A stretch of DNA of 64,000 nt from Lytechinus variegatus (lineage: Eukaryota): NCBI RefSeq assembly GCF_018143015.1, contig NC_054743.1, positions 35,339,243 to 35,403,242 of the forward strand, given 5' to 3'. The position numbers were made by a program, and so were the translations under genes. A model generated the notes under the pieces. The model saw only the letters and a list, made by a program, of their open reading frames with translations. It was not told the DNA's origin and did no database searches. Positions within the stretch are counted from its first letter, which is position 1; each line of letters begins with the position of its first letter. Shown in pieces: positions 5,343-54,246 of the stretch.

Positions 5343-5469
5343 CTGAAAAAGGAGGAACAAAATCATACATACATACATGTATATCCCACCTCAAAAAAAA
5401 AATCTTAAAATCCATATTCTATTGATCGAAATAGACACCAGAAATGAAAAACTCCAAAAATTTGTTTTG

Positions 5470-5665
5470 CCCAATTGATCATGGGCCCGAAAGCCGTCGT
5501 GCAGCGCCATATCGACGAGGCTCTATCCCTTTTACTCATTAAATGCCAAACAGGGTAGCAGCAACTCCCATCTTTTAACGTCTTTTGGTCTGACGCGGCC
5601 AGGGTTTGAACTCCCCACCTCCCGGTTGTGAGACGGACGCTCTACCAACTAAGCCAACATACCTT
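5470..5665 (-). mobile_element. SINE family 2 copy (tRNA-like head ggctcagttggtagagcgtccgtctcacaaccgg..gttcaaaccc)
   Basis: About 200 bp; near-identical copies at 35255-35450(-) and 51150-51355(+). Confidence 0.8.
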
Positions 5666-5985
5666 TTGGATGCTATCGCTAATGGTGTTGGATCATGTCT
5701 CTTTCTTTCACTGAAATGTCGTACAATTGCATAAATAAGCATACTTATTGTACAACACCTCAGCAGTTGGAGAAAACATAAATGATAATCAACTTTTTTC
5801 TTATGTTAAACTATGAATATGATGAAACAATTTAATATTGAAAGCAAAAAAACACAAAATCCCTCAAGGGCGAATCATAATTATCTGTCAGTAAAGCAGT
5901 TTTTTTTAGCAAGTAGACAATACACACATTGGACCTGCATTTATTTACTCAGCGCAAATGAATATCGTCACATAACTTCCTAATG

Positions 5986-6361
5986 CCCCTTTCATAAACC
6001 CATCCTCCAATTATCCGCCTAAGAATAATGCGGATAATTCAATAAAAATTGCGTTCACAAACTCTGAAAATAATCCGCACTTTTTTTTACGAGCGCCCAA
6101 CCTGAAAAAGGCGATTAATTGTCATAGCAACTGCACACGCCCCCTCCGATGGGGTTGCGTTGGAAAAGGGTGACCTTGTGACCACACCATGGCAATTATC
6201 CGCATTACTTTGGAAATGCGTTCATAAAGTCAAAATCTGGTCCCGATGCTGCTATTATGCGGATAATAGCAGCATCGAAATAATGCGGATAACTCTGGTC
6301 CTCCTCCGATTTTACAACCAAATTATGCGGCTATTATCCGCATAATTGGGTTTATGAAAGG
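5986..6361. mobile_element. MITE with TIR ccccttt(c)ataaaccca; internal palindromic motif attatccgcataat x4
   Basis: The terminal inverted repeat 5986-6003 matches the reverse complement at 6343-6361. Confidence 0.6.
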
Positions 6362-6995
6362 GGTATAAGACACACAACAGTACATTTTGGAAGGTATGTG
6401 TGCAATGGTATGAAAGGTCATATTGATGCATGAATGTTTGACGGATTAGAATGAAAATATGCTTTTTCTCATGAAAACTTGAGGTAATTTGAGACAGCTT
6501 TGGAAAATAAACTGTATACATGTGTGGTTCCTCCCTTAAAGCCAGTCAAGATCATATTGCATTCTGGGAAAGGATACTGGGTGGATATGAGGTAATTCAT
6601 ATCTTGGGATGGTAATGCTTTAAAGTAAAAGTAGCGATTACAATCTCAAAATGAATTCGAACAGAATCCAATAAAATATGTGCCAAATATCTCTGGAAGA
6701 GAATACGCAATTGCTGAGAAATGAGCAAAATAAGCACGGAATTCCATCAAATTTCAGGCATTTTTCAAAGCACTATTACTACACTGACCCACATATGCTT
6801 TTCTGTGCAAGTTATCAGAATTATCGATTTCGAGCTAAGATTTCATGATTTTACATATACAAGTTTTTATTAATGTAATGGATGTAGATGTATGATAATA
6901 TTTTGACAATTAACCTTGATTTAAAAGACTTTCTCGTGAAATAATTGTTTGCTGCAACTACTGTGTTTAACCTTTAGATACATGTGATTGCTTAC

Positions 6996-12592: not shown

Positions 12593-13442
12593 CTGAAATG
12601 AAAAAAAGGGAAACAAGAATTAAGAAGGTGCATTTCAAAGAAATTACCAACCATAAATCCATATTAGGGCAATTCAATACGTGTCATACAGGACAGTTCA
12701 ACAACAATTTCTCGTCTCTTACATGAAGCTGAATGCTTGAGCATTAAAATGTTGATTTTTGTCAATGATAAAGTTATAGTGGGTAGTCATGAGAACTGAT
12801 TATCAACAAAAAATATTTGATTATGGGTAAAAAGGTAAAAATGTTGTGTGTCATACATGACTAAAAAATATCCCATACGGCACGAAACATTTTCATCTTT
12901 AAGTCACCCATGGACAACATATTTTTGTTGGATGTCATTTTTTTACATGACTCCCAGTAGTATTTTACTGTGGCCACAAAACAAATTGATGTTCCTTGTT
13001 TGTTTGGACAGCAGGTTGAAACATGATGCGAAACTGGCTGACATTTCTTTCATGGACTCATCCATCAACTGAAACGCTTGTTCCATGCAGTTTCATGACT
13101 TTTTTCTTTAAAGCTACATGTAAGTATCTATAGTGGCAGCAAACAATGAGTTCATGATAAAGTCATTGTTAAAATCAATGCTTCTTGTCACCATGTCATT
13201 GTAGACCCCATCTTCTTCTAAAGAGTTACGACTGATCCAATCAATCATAACTATGGAAAGCCAGCAGCATTAACATTTATTTTGTTCAAAATATTTTCTA
13301 GATACCCGTACAGTATGTTGTACATTCATGCACTCATACTTTTCTTGAAAATTCTGTGTACTTCTCTTTCTTTAGAGAGGACATCATGCAAATTTCCCGG
13401 AGAAAAAAATTATGACACTTAAGGATTTCCATATAAGATGAT

Positions 13443-13750
13443 CAGGGGCCTGTCTTACAAAGAGTTACGATTGATCCAATCAATCACAACTGTATGGAAA
13501 TCCACCCATACCATAATCTCTTCTACAAGAAGTTTGCACAATCTCCTTAGTAAACAAAGAGTCACACTGAATCTTCAAGAGAAGGATGAATGTATGAATA
13601 TACATATCTCAAAAGCATATTTAACAAATATGTATTTAAGATGTTGATGTTGCTGGCCACCCATAGTTGTAATTGATCGGATGAATCATGACTATTTGTA
13701 AGACGGGGCCAAGATCAATCATAACTCTTTGTAAAATGGGCCCCATAACC
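13443..13750. mobile_element. MITE family A (TIR cagggcc(c/t)gtcttacaaagagtt(a/g)cgattgatc)
   Basis: Clear TIRs. Other copies lie at 27541-27825, 31016-31310 and 42336-42597, with a partial copy at 13190-13280. Confidence 0.75.
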
Positions 13751-15585: not shown

Positions 15586-16075
15586 ATGCAGGCTTACAAA
15601 AAAAGAGGGGGGAAGGGAGATTATCAGCATCACCACCATCATCATCATCATCACCATCATCTACATCATCATCACCATCACAATCATCACCATCACCATT
15701 ATCATCATGATCATCACCATCATCATTATCAGCATCACCATCACCATCACCACCACCATCATTATCATCATTATCATCATCATTATCAGCATCACCATCA
15801 CCACCACCATCATTATCATCAGCATCACCATCATCACCATCACCACCACCATCATTATCATCATCATCACCATCACCATTATCATCATGATCATCACCAT
15901 CATCATTATCAGCATCACCATCATCATCACCATCATCATCATCATCACCATCACCATTATCATCACCATCATCATTATCAGCATCACCATCATCACCATC
16001 ACCACCACCATCATTAACATCATCATCGCCATCATCATAACCATCATCATTATCATCATCACCACCATTACGAAA
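15586..16075. repeat. (CAY)n microsatellite of about 490 bp (catcac/catcat), plus a short copy at 16860-16920 and a (GAAR)n block at 16550-16605
   Basis: Pure trinucleotide periodicity. The poly-His (+) and poly-M/V (-) ORFs here are artefacts. Confidence 0.9.
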
Positions 16076-19345: not shown

Positions 19346-19507
19346 AGTATTATTATCATCCTGCATTAATCATTAAAAAAATCATACTTTTCTATCAAGG
19401 TTTGAACAACATGGATGGGTTACTTTTGTAAATGTACATGTATTTAAGAAGATGTTGAGAGTGCATAAGATAATCACCATGCATTTATCCAAAAAGCTAG
19501 TACTTAC

Positions 19508-22500
19508 TTTAGTTAAAACTAATTCATTTGAATAAATAGTATCTCCGTCATGTCTCTGGGTAGTCTTCACAGAACGTCTGGTGCTCTGAAACCTCTCTTC
19601 TTCATAGCTTAGCAAAGAATCTCGAAGTTGTGTCTCGGCGATGGAGTGACTGGCAAATCCTAAGCCCTGTGATGCTACCGGGGCATTGGCATGTGTCCAG
19701 TTGTCTGCCCTTGACCGATCGCTGAAACTAAATCCTTGAGACACTCGCGGAACATCACTATGTGTCCGAGCCCTTCCTTCGGACTGACCACCGAAACTGA
19801 ATCCATTTGATACCCTTACAGCACTTTGAGCTTGATCATTTGCTTCATGCTGACTGCTGGAAACAGATCCTTGAGATTCATCAAGACTGGACACCCCTGA
19901 CACTCCCGAGACAGCACTATGCATCCGAGCTATGGCACAAGTTGAACTTCCAAAAAATAACCCTATTGATGGTCTATCAAATCTAGGCATTTGTGACTGA
20001 CTACCAAAACTGAACCCTTGCGACTGGACATTAAAAGGGGACCCTTGTGGCTGGCTACCAAAACCAATTCCTTTGGATGGACCACCAAAAAGTGGCACTT
20101 GTGACTGGCCACTGAAACCAGTTCCTTGTGATGGGCTACTAAAAGGGGACTCTTGTGGCTGATTATCAAACCCAGACTTTTGTAACTGACCACCAAAAAG
20201 TGACCCTTGTGACTGGCCACTAAAAGGGGACCCTTGTAACTGGCTACCAAAACCAATTCCTTTTGATGGACCACCAAAAAGTGGCACTTGTGACTGGCCA
20301 CTGAAACCAGTTCCTTGTGACGGGCTACTAAAAGGGGACTCTTGGGGCTGATTATCAAACCCAGACTTTTGTAACTGACCACCAAAAAGTGACCCTTGTG
20401 TCTGACCACCAAAAAGGGACCCTTGTGACTGGTTACCAAAAAGTGACCCTTGTGATTGGCTACTAAAAGGGGACCCTTGTGATTGATCCCTGAAACCAGT
20501 TCCTTGTGACTGACCACCAAAACTGAACCTATTAGACTGACCATCAAATCCAGACTTTTGTGACTGAGCACCAAAAAGTGACCCGTGTGACTGACCACCT
20601 AAATCTGTTCCTTGTGACTGATCACCGAAACTAAATTCGTTTGGCGTACCAACAGAGCTAGAAGCTGATTTTTGTGACAGAAAACAAAAAGGTGACCCTT
20701 GTGACTGACCACCAAAAATTTGAGCAGTACGTTGTTGAGCTGATTCAGATTTCTTGAAGGACATCCTGTCAGATTGTGAAGAAGATCCAAATAGACCCAC
20801 TGTGGGCTTAGACACTCTTCCCGACATCTGGAAAGGCAAGCTCGTGGGTGGCAGTTCTGTACTTCCATGATTGTTTGTAGACTGCTCTTGTGATGCAGGC
20901 CCATTGACATCAGGAATTTCAAGCTCGCTTCCTTGTCTTGGGCAGAGGGCATTGTTGGCTTGATGATTTGGATGTAGCAATGACATATCTGATGATTCCA
21001 TTTCCTGTGCAGATTTGCTTGGGGATTCCGGGTATGTTTTGGATACTTCCTCTGGTTGCTCTAATCTCTCAGGAGCATTCTGATCCTGTCCACACCAATT
21101 ATCGGGTTGAAAAGGCGTCTCAGTAACTCTCGAATGGTGTGCATGTGTTCCAGTTCCAAGTTTCAGGCTCTGAGGTTTTCCAGTGGAATCACTCACAGAT
21201 TTGTCTAGCATACCTTGGAGATGTTGACGTCCATTTGGATACAATTCTTGACTGAAATCTTGAGCTGTGGTATCCATGGCAACATTAAACCTTTGGAATT
21301 GAGGCCTTTGTTGTAGACTTCCACTATCTCTGGACTCACGGTCAAGCTTCTTTGTCTCACGTTTCTTGCTTTGAGTAGTATCAAGATCCCCACCTTTAAA
21401 GACCTTTTCTCTGCCAATTTCATTTTTACTATCAAGAAAAATGACACCTCTTTCACATTCACTTCTCTCTTCCGCTAAATCATCATCAACATCCACTCCA
21501 AACCCACAGAATTCCACATCTATAGATGGTGCTAACATTGTACTACCTTGATGAATATGATCTTTTTCATTGTTACTAACTTTTTGCAGTTGGGAGGCAG
21601 GTTCAACACCCGAACCCAATGAACAAGGAAACACTTGTACTGACTGCATGGCCTGTTGAACAAGTGAAGGATGAGAAGAATCAAAATCTCGAGAAACTTG
21701 AGCATATGCAGGAGAAGCTGGAGAATATGCAGGAGAGGTTGGAGAATATGCTAAATATATTGGAGAAGTTGGTGGAGAAGTTGGTGAATATGCAGAAGGG
21801 GAGCGCTGCTGCATGGCTTTTCCAAATGTTTGTTTTTGTGTAGCAAGTTTCTGTGACAGAACTGAGCTCCCATGCATTAACGAGTCAGCCCTAATATCTA
21901 GTAGAGACAGATTACTTTCATATGTACTGGAAGCTTTATCAGATATTCTCTCCAAACCTCCAGCAAGGTCCTGGTATTCCGAAGTTCCTCTTGGTTTGGG
22001 ACTACCTTTCCCACCCTTGTTTAAACCAATGGATTTTACAAGATCTGTATGTCCAGAGTTCCGTGGAGGTGGTGCTGGCATTGATTGAGGAAGAGCTCTA
22101 GCAGCTCGGCGTCGAGTTGGAGGTGGAGCACCAATGGCTTCACTCAGAGGTGGAGGTGGCGGATGAGGAGCACTAGCAGCTTTAAGTGACGGAGGAGGAA
22201 GAACAGCACCATACACAGGAGCACCAAACATGGCACCATCATGTGAATGTGGAGCCGAAGCAGCAGGAAGACCACTACCAGTAGGTGGTGGAGGAGCAGG
22301 TGCAGCAAAACGGCCACGAGAAGGAGGCGGAAGAGGAGGAGCATGAAAGCCACTTAGGGGAGGAGGAGGTGGAGGAGCAGCGAAGACACCAGGAGGCGGT
22401 GGAGGAGGATCACAAACACCACCAGTAAGAGGAGCAGCAGCAGGACGGCCATCAGAAGGAGTCAGAGCATAAAACCCACTTTGAGGAGGTGGAGGAGCAG

Positions 22501-22801
22501 CAAAAACACCAGGAGGTGGTGGAGGTGGAGCACCTGGAGCAAAAATGCCATCAGGAGGAGGTGGGGGAACACCAGCACCCCTACCTCCACCACGACCACC
22601 AATAGCAGATGGAGGACGAGCACCACCAATAGAACAATATCTTCTTAAAGGCATTCCTAGAACTCCTTTTTTTCCTGCCCATGCGGATGATATCTGTCGG
22701 GGATGTCCTTTTCTCATTATGGATGCTTTATAAAGAACCTCATCAGCAGAGAGAGCTTTTGCTTCTAACATTGTCTCCATGATTGCACCATGTTGTTGTT
22801 G
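19508..22801 (-). CDS. PARP4: giant 3294-nt low-complexity coding exon (1098 codons): proline-rich blocks, CTD-like YSPTSPA heptads and about 20 FG-type SQGxxFGGQ repeats; probably the PARP4 C-terminal disordered region
   Basis: Uninterrupted ORF (the 1176-aa ORF 19382..22912). Its 5' end is a strong acceptor tttgttctttgtacag|CAA, in phase 0, which matches exon 24321-24376. Its 3' end is a consensus donor AAA|gtaagt at 19508. Human PARP4 also has a long Pro-rich C-terminal region after the vWA and ITIH-like part. Assignment to the same gene rests on strand, order and phase only. Confidence 0.55.
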
Positions 22802-23147
22802 CTGTACAAAGAACAAAATATGATAGAAAGCAAGCAATGAAATAATATTGATATATAATACAAACAATAATAACATGCAATTTTCATATAGTGCTTGAAA
22901 CGATGCTTTCAAGCTCTACATACTATAACCCACTAACACTAATAGCACTGATTATTTATAAGGGGCTAGTGACATACACTGTATGTACATGTATGTATAA
23001 GCTATAACCCTAGTCATCAGATTCGATCATTCACTCCCACAAAGTGGACTAAACACCATGCATTCATCAGTTTATCTCTTTCAAGGTAATTACAAACCTT
23101 GTTTAAACACTAGTTTTTCTGGGATCTCACATGTAGCACTATTGATT

Positions 23148-32699: not shown

Positions 32700-33250
32700 A
32701 TGACCTAATCTTTTACATGTACATGAGCCTTCCCTTAACGTATATGACCTAACCTTTATATATGTGAGGCTTCCCTTACTGTATATGACTTGAACTTATA
32801 TGTGAGCCTTCCCTTACTGTATATGATCTAACCTGATATGTGAGCCTTCCCTTACTGTATATGACCAAACTTTCTAGTGGATACTGTGTATGACCAAATC
32901 TATTACCACTATCTTACATGTACATGAGCATTGTATATACAAACCTTATACATGAGGCTTCCCTTACTGGACATGACCTAACCTTATATGTGAGCCTTCC
33001 CTTACTGTATATGACTTGAACTTATATGTGAGCCTTCCCTTACTGGATATGACTTGAACTTATATGTGAGCCTTCCCTTACTGTATATGACCAAACCTTA
33101 TATGTGAGCCTTCCCTTACTGTATATGACCGAACATTATATGTGAGTCTTGCCTTGCTGTATATGACCTAACATTATATGTGAGTCTTGCCTTACTATAT
33201 ATGACCTAACATTATATGTGAGTCTTGCCTTACTGTAGATGACCAAATCT
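32700..33250. repeat. minisatellite, about 41-bp unit x about 13 (tatatgtgagccttcccttactgtatatgacc.aac.t), in a PARP4 intron
   Basis: Tandem periodicity by eye. Confidence 0.85.
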
Positions 33251-33779
33251 TACACCTGGGCCTACCATTAACTGGATTTTATTATTCATTTATTTATTGG
33301 TAAATGCACATATACTGACCAGCAGCAGGACTGAATGGGTCAATTGACAATATCAATACAAAGTTTAAAAAACCAAAACAAACAAATACAGTAAATATAA
33401 CTTTTTGCTTTGGTTTGGATTCACTATCCAATAAATAAAGTTGAACGCAAAAACTAAAAAAAATAGAAAAAAACTTTTTGCTTAATGATTTAATGTCATT
33501 AATAATTATGGAAATCAATTTACATGGAGATATATGCATTTCTTGAATAAAAAAAGAATATATAAGAGAAAGAAAAGTGAGGGAGCAGGGGGGATAGAAG
33601 TAGAAACGTATGTATTGCAGAATGAGAAACTTGGGACGGGGAAATATGGGGAGGTCAGAGACTAAAGAGTATTTGTATATGACCTTATGACTAAATCTTT
33701 AAGTGGTCGACCCTCACGCTTCTCATAATTATGAATGTTGGTGATGTATGTATTATGAAATGCACATATTGCAACATAC

Positions 33780-35254: not shown

Positions 35255-35450
35255 TGCTTCGCCCAATTGATCGTGGGCCCGGCAGCGCCAGATCGATGCG
35301 GCTCTATCCCTTTAATCGTTGAACGTCAAACAGGGTAGCAGCAACTCCCATCTTTTAACGTCTTTGGGTCTGACGTGGCCGGGGTTTGAACCCCTAACCC
35401 CCTGGTTGTGAGACGGACGCTCTACCAACTGAGCCAACACACCTTGAGGC
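35255..35450 (-). mobile_element. SINE family 2 copy
   Basis: Near-identical to 5470-5665. Confidence 0.8.
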
Positions 35451-35879: not shown

Positions 35880-36830
35880 ATTGTAACTTTTATAATGCTT
35901 AACCATATCGAAATAATTATTGGATTAAATTGATTTAAAAATAAAGGCATGATATACCTGAACAAAAGCCAAAAAAGAGAAAGAATTCATCATAAGAAAT
36001 GTCAACCCCAAAATGCATCAAAAGTTAAAAACTTAATCAAACAAATTTCAACCTTGAGCAAACAGGATAATCAAACTTCAGGAATATAAACACTTAGAAA
36101 ATTTAAAGTTAAAGATTTGTAAGTCTTTAACTTCCATAATGCTTTAAGCTTTGGAAATGATTATTGGATGAAATTGAATTGAATATAAAAGCATGATATA
36201 TCTCAACATAAGCCCCAAAAAGATAAAGAATACAACAGGATCGTACGAAATGTCAACCCAAAAACACATCACAAATTAATCGAACAAATTTCAACCATAA
36301 ACATACAGGATAATCAAACTTCCTAGAAACACAAAATTAAAAGTTGAAAACTTGTACGTCTTTAACTTTCATAATGCTTTAAGCTTTGGAAATAATTATT
36401 GGATTAAATTGAATTGAATATAAAAGCATGATACACCTGAACACAAGCAAAAAAAAGAGAAAGAATACAACAGGATCGTATAAGATATGTCAACCCCAAA
36501 ACACATCAAAAGCTTACAAATTAATTCAACAAATTTCAACCATAAGCATACAGGATAATCAAACTTCCTAGAAACACTTACAAAATTTAAAATTAAAGAT
36601 TTGTAAGTCTTTAACTTTCATAATGCTTTAATTATTGGATTCAATTGATTTAAATATAGTATAAAGGCATGATATATCTCAACATAAGCCAAAAATGAGA
36701 AAGAATACAACAGGATCGTAAGAAATGTCAACCCCAAAACACATCAATCAAAAGTTCACAAATGAACCCGACAAATTTCAACCATAAGCATACAGGATAA
36801 TCAAACTTCCTAGAAACACTTTCAAATATC
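35880..36830. repeat. satellite, about 240-bp unit x 4
   Basis: The marker ataaaagcatgatata recurs at 35941, 36183, 36421 and 36660. Confidence 0.8.
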
Positions 36831-37686: not shown

Positions 37687-39104
37687 CTGTAAGAACAAAC
37701 AATTTATGATATTTGAATTACATATTTTACGATATGCTAAAAAATAACATTTATGTATTTTTTACAATAATTGATTTGTTATTTACATGAAATTGTAGAT
37801 AAAAGCAATACTAGCCTTACTGTTATTGCGATGCTCCGCATGAATTAATTTTTACATAATTAATGCTTCATCATATTAATCTTAACTCTTGCATAATATG
37901 GTTGCCATATAAACGTATATTTGCGCTTGATAATAGTGGGTGTTGTGCTTTAGAAACTTTCAGTATCCCTTGTTAATTAAACTTTGCATCAGGTTGTTTA
38001 AAAGGACAAAACCTGAACCGAAAGAGAGAAAGCTGTATATAGTAAGTATAAATACATTTTTACTATCACTGATTATTACACACTGACATTCACTATAATT
38101 TGAGATATGAATGGCAAATGAATATTGTTCTAGTGTGACTGATGACGTTCAACTTATGACAGTATGAATCTAATGTTTGAAAGGTAAAATCTGTCTGCGT
38201 GTATATATATGATTCTAATATTACTGATTGTAATTACAAATAGTTATTCTACTTAAACCTGCTTATCTGCTAAGCTACAAATCTAATAACCTGCCGATTG
38301 GAATTCTGATGACTTATTGACTATCAATAAAGTTGTCAATACATATCTATATAGTGGAAACTCGTCATTTCTTTTATGACACAGCTTTGCAAACTACCAT
38401 GGTTTAAACTAGAGGCAGCCACACTTACTTTGATCTTCAGGGGGTGCGTAGTAGATTGTATTGCTGTGATATCCGTGGCCATCTCAACAGACACTGCCAG
38501 TGAGAACGAACTGGAAATAACAATAAAAACAATGAAAATTCATGCATCTTCATATTTGTATGAACAGAAAACACTCGAAAGAAAGAATGTACTACATATT
38601 AACCACCCATGGGGAAAGCTCTTTCTCACACAACTTTTGAGACCAAACTTGCAATCTCCAGGTAAATACTTCATGCATTTTAAACCTGCAAATCAGACCA
38701 TGTTTTTGTTATTACTTATTGAAGTATTTAATTGGATGCCTTTTTAAATTACAAAACCATTTCCACAAATTTTCTTAGCCCAAAACAATGAAAAGTAGTA
38801 ATTTTTCATTATAGATTTGCTAAGCAAAGCCAAGAAGAACATCTAGACCAGAATTTCAAGTTTAGAACAAAATTCTGATTTTATACATAAATCCTAAAAA
38901 TATTGGCATAATCAATATAGTCATAATGTTATTTTAACAAATTAAGTGCAATTTTCCTAGATAACGACATTTACATCGGCATTATCACCTGGTAGATGGC
39001 CAAGATCCAATAAGAGGGGGTCAGGCTTTCCAGCTTCCGAAGTATAAAATACACAGTCATGTTATCTGAAATATTTAAGAAAGCTGAAATAATAACTGAC
39101 TCAC

Positions 39105-39310
39105 ATCGATGACTGATCTTTGACCTTTAAAGTAGCAACGTCCTTCTGTAATACTTGAGAGATGGCAGCCTCCTTACGCCACGGTGCAACGGACCCAGGT
39201 AAACTGAAGGCAATCTTATCCCCCTCAACCGACAGCTCAATCACATAGGTAATCTTAATCACAACCTTGACCTTCGGAGGCAGATTGCCCACGCTCACAG
39301 TAAACACATC
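39105..39310 (-). CDS. PARP4: VIT-domain exon (DVFTVSVGNLPPKVKVVIKITYVIELSVEGDKIAFSLPGSVAPWRKEAAISQVLQKDVATLK...)
   Basis: Acceptor cacttcag|GAT. It matches human PARP4 DVFTVSVGNLPPKAKVLIKITYITELS...ATVAPW. The 3' end is ambiguous. The perfect donor GAT|gtgagt at 39105 gives phase 2, which does not join the next exon. A weak donor AAG|gtcaaa at 39123 would join in frame. Confidence 0.7.
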
Positions 39311-39359
39311 CTGAAGTGAAATAAAACAAAGTCCCCTGTGAGCATTTCATTTTGTATAC

Positions 39360-41300
39360 TTTGTCATGCTTCTTTCACAAGATGACTTGTGTAAAACATC
39401 ATGTAAAAGGCTGTGTAAAATGTAGATAAAATATTGTGTAAAAAAGTGGGTAAACATTGTGTAAAATAAGGAGTTGCCAATTTAAAGATTGAGTAATGAC
39501 TTGTGTAAAACAATATGTAAACCAGTGAGTAAAACACTGAATCACATATTGTGTACAACAGTGAGTAGAACATTGTGTACAGCAGTGTGTAAAATATTGG
39601 GTAAATACTGTGTAAAACTTTGTGTAAAACAATGAATAAAGCACTGTATAACAGTTGATAAATCACTGAGAAAAACATTGTGTAAACAGTGTGTAAAACA
39701 GTGTAAACGTAGTGATTAAAATTTGAATAAAACTGTGTGGTAAGAAGTGCGTAAAACATTACAGTTACGGTGTAAAATGAGGAATTGCCAATTTGAAGAT
39801 TGACTTTCTGGGGCTTCTTCATCCATCAGATAGGCTCCGTGCCTCTTACTGATTGCTCCCTTGCATTCCTCATGAGCTTGTTCTTCCTCCTTGTACGATG
39901 TGCTTGAAGTTGAAGACGACTTGTGTAAAATTTGTTAATTATTGTGTGAAAAATTTAATCAAAACAGTGGGTAAAACTTTCATGTGCAGAACAGTATAGG
40001 ATAAAAACGTTGTATAAAACGTCGTGCACAGCATTGGGTAAAATGAGGAATTGCCAAATTGAAGTTTGAGTAATACCTTGTGTAAAACAGTGTATAAATT
40101 GTGCATAAATCATCATATAAAAAGAGTGAGCAAAACTGTATGCAAAACATAGTGTAAAGCTGTGTGCAAATTATGTGAAACAGTGTGTGAAAATTAGGAA
40201 TTGCCAATTTAAAGACTGAGTAATGACTTGGGTAAAACAATGTATAAAACTGTGCATAAAGCATCATGTAAAAAATAGTGAGTATAACTGTGTGCAAAAC
40301 ATTGCATGAAACAGTGTGTAAAACATTGTGTAAAACATTTATGTGACAAAATGAGGAGATGCCAATTTGAAGATCGTTTCGGACTCACTGGTGCTTCTTC
40401 ATCCATGAGATAGGCTCCGTGTCCCTTACTGATGGCTTCCTTGTATTCCTTATGAGCCTGTTCTATGTGCTTTTATCCAATTTAGCCTCAAAACATTATT
40501 GTGTGTTATGAATTGTCAAATGAGTTGCCAATTTGAAGTTTGAGTAACGACTTGTGTACAATGTGTAAATCATTGTGCAAAAAAATGATAAAACAGTGGG
40601 TAAACCTTGCGTAAATCAGTGTAGGATAAAACTAGAATGTAAAACACAGCACTGAGTAAAATGAGGAATTGCCAATTTGAAGATTGATTAATGACTTGTG
40701 TAAAACTGTGTATATAACTGTGCATAAAGCATAATGTCAAAATAGTAAGTATAACTGTGTGCAAAACATTGCCTGAAACGGTGGGTAAAAGATTGAGTTA
40801 AACATGTGACACAATGAGATGCCAATTTGAAGATCGACTGACTGGTGCTTCATCATCCATCAGATAGGCTCTGTGCCTCTTACTGATTGCTCCCTTGTAT
40901 TCCTTATGAGCCTGTTCTTCCTCCTTATCTCTTATCTCCTATGAATGCCTCAAAACCTTGTTGTGTGTTATGAGTTGTCAAATGAATAGCCAAGTTGAAG
41001 TTTGAGTAACGACTTGTGTACAATGTGTAAATCATTGTGCAAAAAAATTATAAAACAGTGGGTAAAACCCTGTGTAAATCAGTGTAGGATAAAAACTAGA
41101 ATGTAAAACACAGCATTGAGTAAAATGAGGAATTGCCAATTTGAAGATTGAGTAATGACTTGTGTAAAACTGTGTATAAAAGTATATATAAAGCATCATG
41201 TCAAAAAACAGCAAGTAAAACTGTGTGCAAAACATTGTGAGAAAAATTGTGTAAAACAGTGTGACACAATGAGGAGATGCCAATTTGAAGATCGACTTAC
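39360..41300. repeat. higher-order tandem array (about 460-bp unit of three sub-repeats of about 150 bp, gccaatttgaag plus tgtgtaaaac-like motifs); one sub-repeat per unit is a copy of the 3' end of the VIT exon plus donor
   Basis: The exon-end copy cttcttcatccat(g/c)agatagg...ccttatgagcctgttc recurs at 39806, 40388, 40843 and, in the real exon, 41297. Confidence 0.8.
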
Positions 41301-41519
41301 TGGTGCTTCTTCATCCATGAGATATGCTCCATGCCCCTTACTGATTGCTTCCTTGTATTCCTTATGAGCCTGTTCTTTCTCCTTGACCGTACCCACTATG
41401 TGCTTGTCTCCTATGAATGCCTCGAACCCACACACGGCGGCACTGTCTTCCAGGGGGAATACATACTTGGCTTCGATGGACTCCCGGTTCACGTTGTCAT
41501 ACTCCTGGAAGATGACGAC
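41301..41519 (-). CDS. PARP4: VIT-domain exon (VVIFQEYDNVNRESIEAKYVFPLEDSAAVCGFEAFIGDKHIVGTVKEKEQAHKEYKEAISKGHGAYLMDEEAP)
   Basis: Acceptor tacctctag| and donor CCA|gtaagt, 219 nt, phase 0 to 0. It nearly matches human PARP4 AKYIFPLDDKAAVCGFEAFINGKHIVGEIKEKEEAQQEYLEAVTQGHGAYLM. Confidence 0.85.
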
Positions 41520-45258: not shown

Positions 45259-45445
45259 ACTAAAATCGGAAGCTATCTGTCCAGCTACGGCTCCTAAACC
45301 CTTGACACTATCAAAGCCACTTGGAGGTTGGTCGAGGTCTGGGTGATATTTAGTGACTTCATGGCATCTGCCTAAGGACACCTCACATATCATCAGAAAC
45401 CGACTATTACTCAGTTTGCTTTGGACAGAGTAACATGCGCTGGTG
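45259..45445 (-). CDS. PARP4: PARP catalytic-domain exon (STSACYSVQSKLSNSRFLMICEVSLGRCHEVTKYHPDLDQPPSGFDSVKGLGAVAGQIASDFS)
   Basis: Acceptor ctcttctttttaacag| and donor AGT|gtaagt, phase 2 to 0. It matches PARP1 LLLGEVALGNMYEL...PKGKHSVKGLGKTTPDPS and human PARP4 LLLICDVALGKCMDLHEKDFSL..PPGYDSVHGVS. Confidence 0.8.
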
Positions 45446-45449
45446 CTGT

Positions 45450-45810
45450 TAAAAAGAAGAGATACATGTATGTGGTCGGTTAGATTAGAGATTTATTAAC
45501 ATCTGGTTTGAAATTGGTTAAGATCTGGCTGATATTCAAGGACCTAATGACATCTGCCCAAGGATTCCTCACATATCATCAGAAACCAACTATTACTCAA
45601 ATTGCTTTGGACAGAGTAACATACACTGATGCTAAAACAAGAGAGATATAAGATTAGTTAAGATCAGGTAAGAGGTTGGTTTTGATCTTGGTTATATTCC
45701 ATGACCTTATGATATCTGCCTAAAGAAGCCTCACATATCATCAGAAAACAACCATTACTCAAGGTGTTCTGGACAGAGCAACATGCATTGGTGCTAAATT
45801 AAGAGATACA
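45450..45810. repeat. two degenerate tandem copies (about 180 bp each) of the 5' half of catalytic exon 45259-45445 plus its upstream intron
   Basis: The copies read SNLSNSWFLMICEESLGRCH... with stop codons. Confidence 0.75.
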
Positions 45811-46003
45811 TTACAAGCTTAATAGAAAGATGTCTGTTAATAGTACTAATCAATATCAAATTGTTACTAACACACATGGACACAAAAATGAAAACAAGAA
45901 CCATATTAAACGCCTGAGAACTCCTCTCATTTGTGCCAAAACACATTGAATGGTCCAATATTTTATTTTACACGAAAGTAACATCAACTTAAATATGCCT
46001 TAC

Positions 46004-48625: not shown

Positions 48626-48781
48626 CTTACCCCGTCAAGCTGTCTTGGATCTGTTTTGAAATCTGCTCATACTCTGCCGATTCTGATGTTAGGAGTTCCA
48701 TATGACAGCGGAGAGTACGATACTTGGCCTCTGTACTCCCTCGCATAGACCAATCAGTGGCCTCACAGACGCTGTGCACAT
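48621..48781 (-). CDS. PARP4: PARP4-like exon, helical to catalytic junction (LLSDVHSVCEATDWSMRGSTEAKYRTLRCHMELLTSESAEYEQISKQIQDSLTG)
   Basis: Acceptor tgtgtttttcag| and donor GGG|gtaagg, 161 nt, phase 0 to 2. It resembles human PARP4 LAKYRALRCKIEHVEQNTEEFLRVRKEVLQ. Confidence 0.75.
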
Positions 48782-49110
48782 CACTAAGCAACTGAAAACA
48801 CAGTAAAAAACATTAGACTTCTCTGTCACTGTAACATCAAATACTATCCGGAAATGACTTCTTTACGACAAATTCATCATTATGCCCAGTTGTTATAAAA
48901 TTTGCTGGACAAGTTAATTTCTAGACAAGCTTCAGATGCTGTGAACATCGCTAAGCAACTGAAAACACAGTAAACAACATGGCATTTCTCAGTCATTGCA
49001 CCATCAAATGATTTTTTTTCCAGTTAAAACTTGAAAACAGTAGTGCTTATTTTGTTGAAATCGGATTTGACTATGGTGATTTTGATAATAAAATTAAGAA
49101 ACTTAACTAA

Positions 49111-53954: not shown

Positions 53955-54165
53955 TGAGAATATGACGTATTGCTGACCTCGTCACATGACACCCTATCCA
54001 AAGGGCATGAGAGTATATCATTAAGATGACCTTTTGCTTACCTGGTCACGCGACACCCTATCCATGGGACATGAGAGTATGTCATTAAGATGACCTTTTG
54101 CTTACCTGGTCACGTGACACCCTATCCATGGGACATGAGAGTATGTCATTGAGATGACCTATGGC
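53955..54165. repeat. 61-bp tandem repeat x about 3.4, made of copies of the 3' end plus donor of exon 54106-54246
   Basis: The unit catgtcccatggatagggtgtcacgtgaccaggtaagcaaaaggtcatcttaatgacatactct is repeated. Two copies retain CCAG|gtaagc. Confidence 0.85.
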
Positions 54166-54246
54166 TTCCATCCATATCTGCTCCACAAGGGCTACTAAAT
54201 CCGATGAAAGCTTCTCACCAGCCAAATAACCCGCATCAAAGGAATC
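54106..54246 (-). CDS. PARP4: PARP4-like exon, start of the PARP alpha-helical regulatory domain (DSFDAGYLAGEKLSSDLVALVEQIWMEAIGHLNDILSCPMDRVSRDQ)
   Basis: Acceptor ttttttatgatttag| and donor CAG|gtaagc. It matches human PARP4 SQEVSDLVEMIWAEALGHLEHMLLKPVNRISLND closely. Its 3' end plus donor is tandemly triplicated downstream (53955-54165). Confidence 0.7.

Follow-up and report, generated by a model that had tools for sequence, protein, structure and literature searches.

Minisatellites that span an exon-intron junction are known mainly from amphioxus and a few human genes. The amphioxus 'mirages', minisatellite-like tandem duplications of exon-intron boundaries, occur in Adh3, the globin genes BflGb6 and BflGb9, troponin C and PGBD5 (PMC3087553; PMC3902484). 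Mirages lie at both 5' and 3' boundaries, with three units on one haplotype and six on another (PMC3087553). Reverse-transcription PCR is reported to show no aberrant mRNA from them, and a part in intron gain has been suggested for them (PMC3087553; PMC3902484); tandem duplication of AGGT-containing segments is an intron-gain model attributed there to Rogers (as cited in PMC3087553). Human genes carry intronic variable number tandem repeats (VNTRs) whose first monomer lies across the boundary, namely F7 intron 7 (IVS7, 37 bp), IFI6 (gene 6-16) intron 2, CBS IVS13, LMNB2 (100 bp) and PDGF intron 4 (81 bp), and in F7 IVS7, LMNB2 and PDGF the authentic upstream donor alone is used (PMC1557585). 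In human segmental duplications, too, genes are remodelled by tandem repeats that lie at exon-intron boundaries (PMC2812944). Here we describe an array of this known class in a 64,000-nucleotide stretch of Lytechinus variegatus DNA (NC_054743.1, positions 35,339,243 to 35,403,242 of the forward strand; hereafter the window), where the 3' end of a VIT-domain exon of a PARP4-like gene is reiterated together with its donor and the start of the following intron. We consider it quite likely that the array is a mirage-type minisatellite, which unequal crossing-over produced as a neutral side effect in a genome full of repeats. What is added to the known class is the recurrence of such arrays at this PARP4 junction in multiple lineages and their density within one gene.

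The host gene lies on the minus strand, with exon translations that span ~59.4 kb down to 29.6 kb of the window. Pfam searches of the concatenated exon translations matched PARP_reg, PARP, VIT/VIT_2 and VWA_3 above their cut-offs (E-values of 1.5e-34 for VIT, 2e-27 for PARP and 5e-11 for VWA_3). Counting a sub-threshold match to BRCT_2, the domains follow the PARP4 order of BRCT, PARP catalytic, VIT and VWA. The top homologues of the exon translations are named PARP4 and share ~50% identity at best (Lottia, Candidula, corals), fish PARP4 shares 44%, and no amphioxus protein is among the PARP4 matches listed. The domain content and the PARP4-named matches together indicate that the host gene is an invertebrate PARP4 orthologue. 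The parts of this gene that frame the array are the following.

41301..41519, minus strand: authentic VIT-domain exon (sequence; tblastn 100%; Pfam; PARP4 homologues; exon order colinear with the orthologous locus L001).
39311..41300, minus strand: intron after the VIT exon, 1,990 nt (sequence; tblastn of both exons; orthologous introns L001-L009).
39104..39310, minus strand: next VIT exon (DVFTVSVGNLPP...KDQSSM), which lies outside the array and bounds the intron (sequence; tblastn).

The VIT exon (41519-41301) has 73 codons, is in phase 0 at both ends and finishes on the residues GAYLMDEEAP. Its donor is CCA/GTAAGT, where the slash marks the junction; the GTAAGT occupies 41300-41295, and the acceptor AG of the intron lies at 39312-39311.

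An earlier note on this DNA had proposed that a tandem higher-order array re-duplicates the 3' end of the VIT exon with its donor and intron start, and had called for a self-comparison to look for periodicity. Run on the window, Tandem Repeats Finder (TRF) reported a period of 462 (score 1663) over 40190-41385, and self-blastn gave long off-diagonal matches over 955 nt (81% identity), 434 nt (77%) and 442 nt (69%), with E from 0 to 1e-39. The periodicity is far above chance, and self-blastn found no copy of the array elsewhere in the 64-kb window. A tblastn search with the VIT exon peptide recovered three further in-frame copies of its last 25-28 codons on the minus strand (E 1e-11 to 1e-14), which read KEEEQAHKEYKGAISKRHRAYLMDDEAP at 40926-40843, ..EQAHKEYKEAISKGHGAYLMDEEAP at 40481-40389 and KEEEQAHEECKGAISKRHGAYLMDEEAP at 39892-39809. 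Together with the authentic exon end, the three intronic copies form four head-to-tail units with junction-to-junction spacings of 458, 454 and 580 nt. The earlier figure of four units of about 460 bp downstream of the exon needs correction: the number four includes the authentic end, only three of the units are intronic copies, and the last spacing is longer. The units are listed below; M1, M2 and M3 are motifs of the intron start.

40958..41429, minus strand: unit U0, made up of the authentic exon tail, donor, M1, minisatellite, M2, minisatellite and M3 (alignment A1; blastn).
40482..40957, minus strand: unit U1 (sequence; tblastn; alignment A1; U1 small nuclear RNA duplex energy).
39905..40481, minus strand: unit U2, ~120 nt longer than U0 and U1 (sequence; tblastn; alignment A1; codon comparison; U1 small nuclear RNA duplex energy).
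39380..39904, minus strand: unit U3, the most decayed (sequence; TRF; self-blastn; tblastn; alignment A1; unit-pair identities).

A MAFFT alignment of the four units (A1) kept exon tail, junction and intron start in register throughout, so that every unit contains part of the exon (85-129 nt), the adjacent start of the intron and the position of the splice signal. The array that the earlier note described is borne out by TRF, self-blastn and this alignment alike. The exon-derived part of U0 is the last 129 nt of the VIT exon (41429-41301), and blastn aligned 40515-41429 to 40038-40957 at 81% over 955 nt. Compared with the exon, the pseudo-exon copy of unit U1 (40957-40843) lacks 14 nt; its translation is GFEAFIGDK..KEEEQAHKEYKGAISKRHRAYLMDDEAP. 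In unit U2 the copy (40481-40389) has a degenerate 5' end with an in-frame TAA upstream. In unit U3 the copy (39904-39809) is followed, downstream of its junction, by an M2-type motif and then by a long (GTTTTACACA)n-like 12/24-nt minisatellite.

Each unit is itself built from ~three sub-repeats of roughly 145 nt, and internal shifts of this size align at 72% identity. Every unit holds three M motifs of the form AAGTC..TCTTCAAATTGGCA.(T/C)TCCTCATT, spaced by a (GTTTTACACA)n-like minisatellite, and the M motif (AAGTC..TCTTCAAATTGGCA..TCCTCATT) corresponds to the ancestral intron start. Considering the three motifs per unit and the ~145-nt shifts, 'higher-order array' is a fair description.

The donor positions of the three copies have fared differently. 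The junction of unit U2 is CCA/GTGAGT (40388-40383), a donor-like site that is still intact, as had been noted for the copy at 40360-40470. Both other copies had been described as having lost their donors. This is true of unit U3, where CCA/GAAAGT (39808-39803) no longer has the GT, but in unit U1 the boundary is CCA/GTCAGT (40842-40837), which keeps the GT and is weakened by a C at +3. The pseudo-donors GTCAGT, GTGAGT and GAAAGT are therefore no longer identical to the authentic GTAAGT. The authentic site is predicted to pair with U1 small nuclear RNA (snRNA) at -5.6 kcal/mol, and the copies ending at 40389 and 40843 at -5.7 and -1.5 kcal/mol. The donor-like site at 40388 thus has equal predicted strength and its native exonic context, 912 nt inside the intron.

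By sequence inspection, every intronic copy lacks a usable acceptor, none can be entered in an open frame from the real exon, and in each the conserved tail is preceded by stops or a disrupted frame. We considered the copies as cassette or mutually exclusive exons and rejected this, since phase-0 reading into any candidate acceptor runs into stops and a polypyrimidine/AG context is lacking. Examples are GCA TTC ATA GGA GAT AAG AGA TAA in unit U1 and a TAA four codons before the conserved tail in unit U2. Lacking both acceptor and open frame, the intronic copies would be removed with the intron. From the precedents we infer that the authentic, 5'-most donor is the site used and that the additional donor-like sites are silent or almost silent.

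The array shares several features with the amphioxus mirages. Both consist of head-to-tail tandem units of exon part, adjacent intron and splice signal, with the authentic exon in the terminal unit; here the exon at 41519-41301 is 5'-most and all copies lie downstream of it in the intron. In both cases the units are imperfect, with identities of 81-100% in BflGb6 (PMC3087553; PMC3902484) and roughly 60-98% in the window. As in amphioxus, both kinds of boundary are affected in one genome (acceptors at 45328-45811 and 48766-49009, donor at 39380-41429). Copy number differs between BflGb6 haplotypes (6 against 3 units) and, for an array orthologous to that of the window, between the loci L001 and L004 (5 against 7 copies). 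Unlike the described mirages, which have units of 10-160 nt, the window array has units of 454-580 nt with a ~145-nt sub-repeat and a higher-order structure. It is also older and more decayed, with two of its three copy donors damaged. We take unit size as a descriptive, not a defining, feature; at 95-152 nt, the orthologous arrays and the parallel ones described below fall within 10-160 bp. With the best named PARP4 matches of the host gene in molluscs and corals and no amphioxus match listed, the mirage phenomenon may extend outside cephalochordates.

As in the human VNTRs, the minisatellite reiterates the donor downstream of the authentic site, its first monomer crosses the exon-intron boundary in the manner of F7 IVS7, and the most upstream site is expected to be the one in use (PMC1557585). 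F7 monomers, however, include only 4 exon nt and carry identical pseudo-sites tens of nt apart (PMC1557585), whereas the window array copies 85-129 nt of coding sequence, and its sites are 454-580 nt apart and no longer identical. Like the repeats of human segmental duplications (PMC2812944) and the model of Rogers (as cited in PMC3087553), it illustrates a junction-crossing minisatellite expansion of the sort that can create new splice-site configurations. Unlike them, it lies wholly within a conserved, pre-existing intron and shows no sign of a new intron, exon extension or alternative transcript.

The identities between units are mosaic. U0 and U1 share 96-98% identity across the 3' half of the unit and 78-90% across its 5' half, U1 and U3 are closest in the exon tail (93%), and U0 and U2 are 97% identical at the junction and M1 motif. 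The M2-type motif at the U3 junction gives an exact 32-nt match in self-blastn (41120-41151 with 39772-39803). These mosaic identities and the U3 junction point to several unequal exchanges or conversions that used the M motifs as homology, and repeated unequal exchange is supported as the best explanation of the array. The recurrent unequal crossing-over put forward in the earlier note agrees with this and with the different copy numbers of L001 and L004.

The array could have arisen as follows. At the ancestral start of the intron there would have been a single M motif with a GTTTTACACA-like seed, and both still occur once in the orthologous locus L002. The intron start would then have been reiterated as ~145-nt sub-repeats, after which a misaligned exchange may have brought the final ~129 nt of exon sequence, along with the donor, inside the repeat and so formed the ~460-nt higher-order unit. 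Amplification of this unit to four copies would have been accompanied by reshuffling through unequal crossing-over or gene conversion between M motifs. The intronic copies, spliced out with the intron, would since have decayed in a roughly neutral manner, and the donors of two of the three are already damaged.

Orthologous loci were reached through read-through open reading frames (ORFs) in a large protein collection, and differ in whether the intron holds copies of the exon tail.

L002 and L005: closest to the window, 94.5% at the amino-acid level; intron 519 nt with one M-like motif; no exon-tail copies.
L003: more distant; intron 45 nt; no exon-tail copies.
L006 and L007: more distant; intron 252-261 nt; no exon-tail copies.
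L008 and L009: more distant; intron 59 nt; no exon-tail copies.
L001: 89% at the amino-acid level, colinear over 15 exons; intron 1,779 nt; 5 exon-tail copies.
L004: 93-98% at the nucleotide level to L001; intron 2,025 nt; 7 exon-tail copies.

The units of the L001 array measure 111-152 nt and combine ~87 nt from the end of the exon with GTGAGT and a spacer rich in G. L001 and L004 are two long-read contigs of one sample, and their five and seven copies indicate, at the sequence level, copy-number variation of an orthologous array. In both (L001 10340-10720, L004 10343-10960) the pseudo-donors are all CCG/GTGAGT and the authentic site is CCA/GTGAGT. GTGAGT is retained in most copies, and the pseudo-donors are predicted to pair more strongly with U1 snRNA than the authentic site (-11.0 vs -7.3 kcal/mol). 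In L004 the frame is open from the exon through two whole units. We rejected this read-through as a sign of translation, given that the 111/114-nt units of L001 and L004 keep the frame while 127-nt units do not, and that the G-rich spacer is poor in stops. An ancestral array common to the window and L001 was also rejected as the simplest reading: the units begin at different points of the exon (~129 vs ~87 nt of tail), their spacers show no relation, and no array is present in L002 and L005, which are nearer to the window. The structure, register, mosaicism and lineage-specificity of the array are direct observations, as is the copy-number variation in an orthologous one.

The window is rich in repeats, with ~9 arrays in 64 kb that make up ~10% of its length. 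Further minisatellites, with periods of 21 to 235 nt, lie at 710-1135, 1600-2015, 15623-16068, 32724-33252, 35884-36819 and 53962-54167. Self-comparison restricted to exons revealed two more junction-spanning duplications in the host gene.

45328-45811, minus strand: second junction-spanning array, with the acceptor and first ~118 nt of a PARP-catalytic exon (identity 75-77%).
48766-49009, minus strand: third duplication, with the acceptor (ttactgtgttttcag) and first ~26 nt of the exon that starts at 48791 (84% over 77 nt).

In the former, the real exon starts at 45445 and two upstream pseudo-exons start at 45631 and 45793, each still after an AG; in the latter, the copy starts at 48958, 167 nt upstream of the exon start at 48791. 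That the crossing-over lay exactly at an exon-intron junction, as the earlier note put it, need not mean that a special mechanism was at work, in a gene with two more such arrays and a window that is ~10% tandem repeat.

L001 has junction-spanning arrays of its own. At 5350-6680, ~7 tandem copies of the acceptor and 5' part of the last PARP-domain exon (ANEFVIYNVGQQRLRYLVEFSLPGD) are separated by an (ATC)n spacer, with the real exon as the last copy, and a 2-unit duplication at 13283-13580 covers the acceptor belonging to the 13477 exon. In the window gene, 3 of ~20 exons have a duplication across a junction, and in L001 3 of 15, which amounts to ~3/40 and ~3/30 junctions, or 7-10% per junction. 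At these rates, one junction common to the window and L001 is expected ~20% of the time, so the coincidence between these two alone needs no special mechanism.

A further 80 loci came from scanning metagenome contigs, and we counted loci as clusters of ≥90% identity. Junction-spanning arrays were found in the following.

L014 380-640: array at the VIT-exon donor junction, with 95-nt units and donors kept.
L047 1440-1960 (same as L048): array at the VIT-exon donor junction, with 104-nt units in 4-5 copies.
L056 800-1440 and L057 440-830: arrays at the VIT-exon donor junction, with 165-340 nt units that include a microsatellite, partly decayed.
L017 4880-5000 and relatives: 72-nt duplication at the acceptor end of the VIT-exon intron.

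Arrays were present on the donor side of the VIT exon in 5/32 clusters, on its acceptor side in 0/32 and at the acceptor of the next exon in 1/24. The donor and acceptor sides of the VIT exon differ with a Fisher P=0.053, in a comparison that is post hoc and in which two of the five positive clusters, which have a common spacer motif, may have one origin. Unit sizes at the donor junction are 95, 104, 111-152, ~165-340 and ~460 nt, and the spacers are unrelated. Arrays of their own, differently built, are thus seen in ~4-5 of 32 lineages. We consider it rather unlikely that this junction (...GAYLMDEExP/GT) is a recurrent hotspot at which arrays arose in ~4-5 separate animal lineages. Among the same loci, the VIT-exon gene is present twice on several WLWD01/WLWI01 contigs (L011-L024), at distances of 24-59 kb, as with L011 and L016 on WLWD01000407.1, with introns of 570 to 3,283 nt at this position; this suggests tandem paralogues in that organism.

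Several points count against a neutral, unused by-product, and we take each with the alternative on which it bears. The first is that the silence of the GTGAGT copy at 40388-40383 is an assumption, its predicted U1 snRNA pairing being equal to that of the authentic site. The copy could act as a functional decoy or an alternative 5' splice site. It is preceded by a copy of the final 75 nt of the exon, in which the exon's enhancers may lie, and it would compete for U1 snRNA. It could also act as a poison exon, in which pairing with a cryptic upstream AG would bring in premature stops and down-regulate PARP4. Proximal pseudo-sites can be used, as in IFI6 and CBS (PMC1557585), and in L001 and L004 the retained pseudo-donors even outpair the authentic one. 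Yet a good donor remains in just one of the three window copies, no convincing acceptor or polypyrimidine tract was found upstream of it, and any inclusion gives stops. Precedent points the same way, since F7, LMNB2, PDGF and the amphioxus mirages are reported to splice at the authentic site only, and the array is wholly absent from the closest relative. We therefore regard a functional role for this copy as improbable, and by precedent decoy or alternative donors are unlikely to be a major effect of the array.

The second concerns the exon tails, whose differences lean synonymous. Pairwise ratios of non-synonymous to synonymous change (dN/dS) are 0.14-0.42; the unit U2 copy differs from the exon by 0 non-synonymous and 4 synonymous changes. 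Over all copies 7 non-synonymous stand to 6 synonymous events (P=0.016 under a uniform mutation model), a count in which polarisation is ambiguous and the model ignores transition bias. Arrays at the donor junction, moreover, recur above what a purely random model comfortably predicts, a suggestive excess that we leave unexplained. Both could mean that the reiterated tail is itself selected, for example as a loading platform for U1 snRNA and SR-proteins or as an RNA or DNA element. This would explain conserved-looking tails and repeated arrays with unrelated spacers and units of 95 to 460 nt at this one junction (the window, L001/L004, L014, L047/L048 and L056/L057), in 5/32 clusters as opposed to none at the control junction.

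However, this enrichment is marginal and was spotted after the fact, its clusters may be fewer in origin than in number, and the base rate per junction is already such that the window and L001 would coincide ~20% of the time. Conservation of the M motifs, which come from the intron, equals that of the exon tails, the copies have indels, lost donors and frameshifts, and most lineages, the nearest included, lack the arrays. We attribute the synonymous lean to re-seeding of the copies from the constrained exon at different times, as the mosaicism suggests; weak constraint would look alike. Confounded in this way by re-seeding from a functional exon, the codon-level test is nominal only, and we rejected it as evidence of constraint, which is unproven for the copies. 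Selection on the tail is in our view very unlikely.

The last point is that an exact-motif scan of the metagenome contigs found no second assembly or haplotype of the window species, and protein searches found no ORF identical to the window's. The array is known from one assembly, and tandem repeats are error-prone in assemblies, so a false expansion of a shorter repeat might be considered. Its units, however, differ by 8-40%, with many indels, and range in length from 454 to 580 nt. Such differences rule out a recent duplication in the assembly and are not invented by assemblers, and analogous arrays occur in independent contigs of other species (L001, L004), making an artefact extremely improbable. 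Exon fragments in introns are sometimes transposon-borne, but a Helitron or Pack-type element inserted into the intron with a captured exon fragment is equally hard to credit: these copies adjoin the parent exon, colinear, in the same orientation and in register. We rejected transposon capture, having found no terminal inverted repeats, no dispersed copy in the 64-kb window and no match to the spacer motif in the metagenome contigs; the spacer goes back to the ancestral start of the intron, as L002 shows it.

Two other features of the window lie outside the array. An unbroken 1,176-codon ORF (19382-22912, minus strand) has a proline-rich start followed by GQSQGSLFGG-type repeats that coincide with 27/54/189-nt tandem repeats at 19975-20632, and is probably a large C-terminal exon of the PARP4-like host gene. 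Inside a PARP4 intron, Rfam gives a borderline match to tRNA at 35371-35443 (minus strand; 30.2 bits, gathering score 29), which may not be a gene but a repeat derived from a tRNA.

Taken as a single locus the array carries little weight: it is likely a neutral quirk, and gene predictors and splice callers should not call extra exons or donors from it. With a donor of equal predicted strength deep in the intron, it is also a natural test case for 5' splice-site choice. More broadly, it is further evidence that junction-spanning minisatellites are common in one or more other invertebrate genomes rich in repeats, and it has been suggested that intron gain and exon extension may draw on arrays of this type. 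If the VIT-exon donor junction were a true hotspot, this would imply either a mutational mechanism peculiar to the junction or a benefit under selection from reiterating modules of exon tail and donor, and 'mirages' may not be confined to amphioxus.

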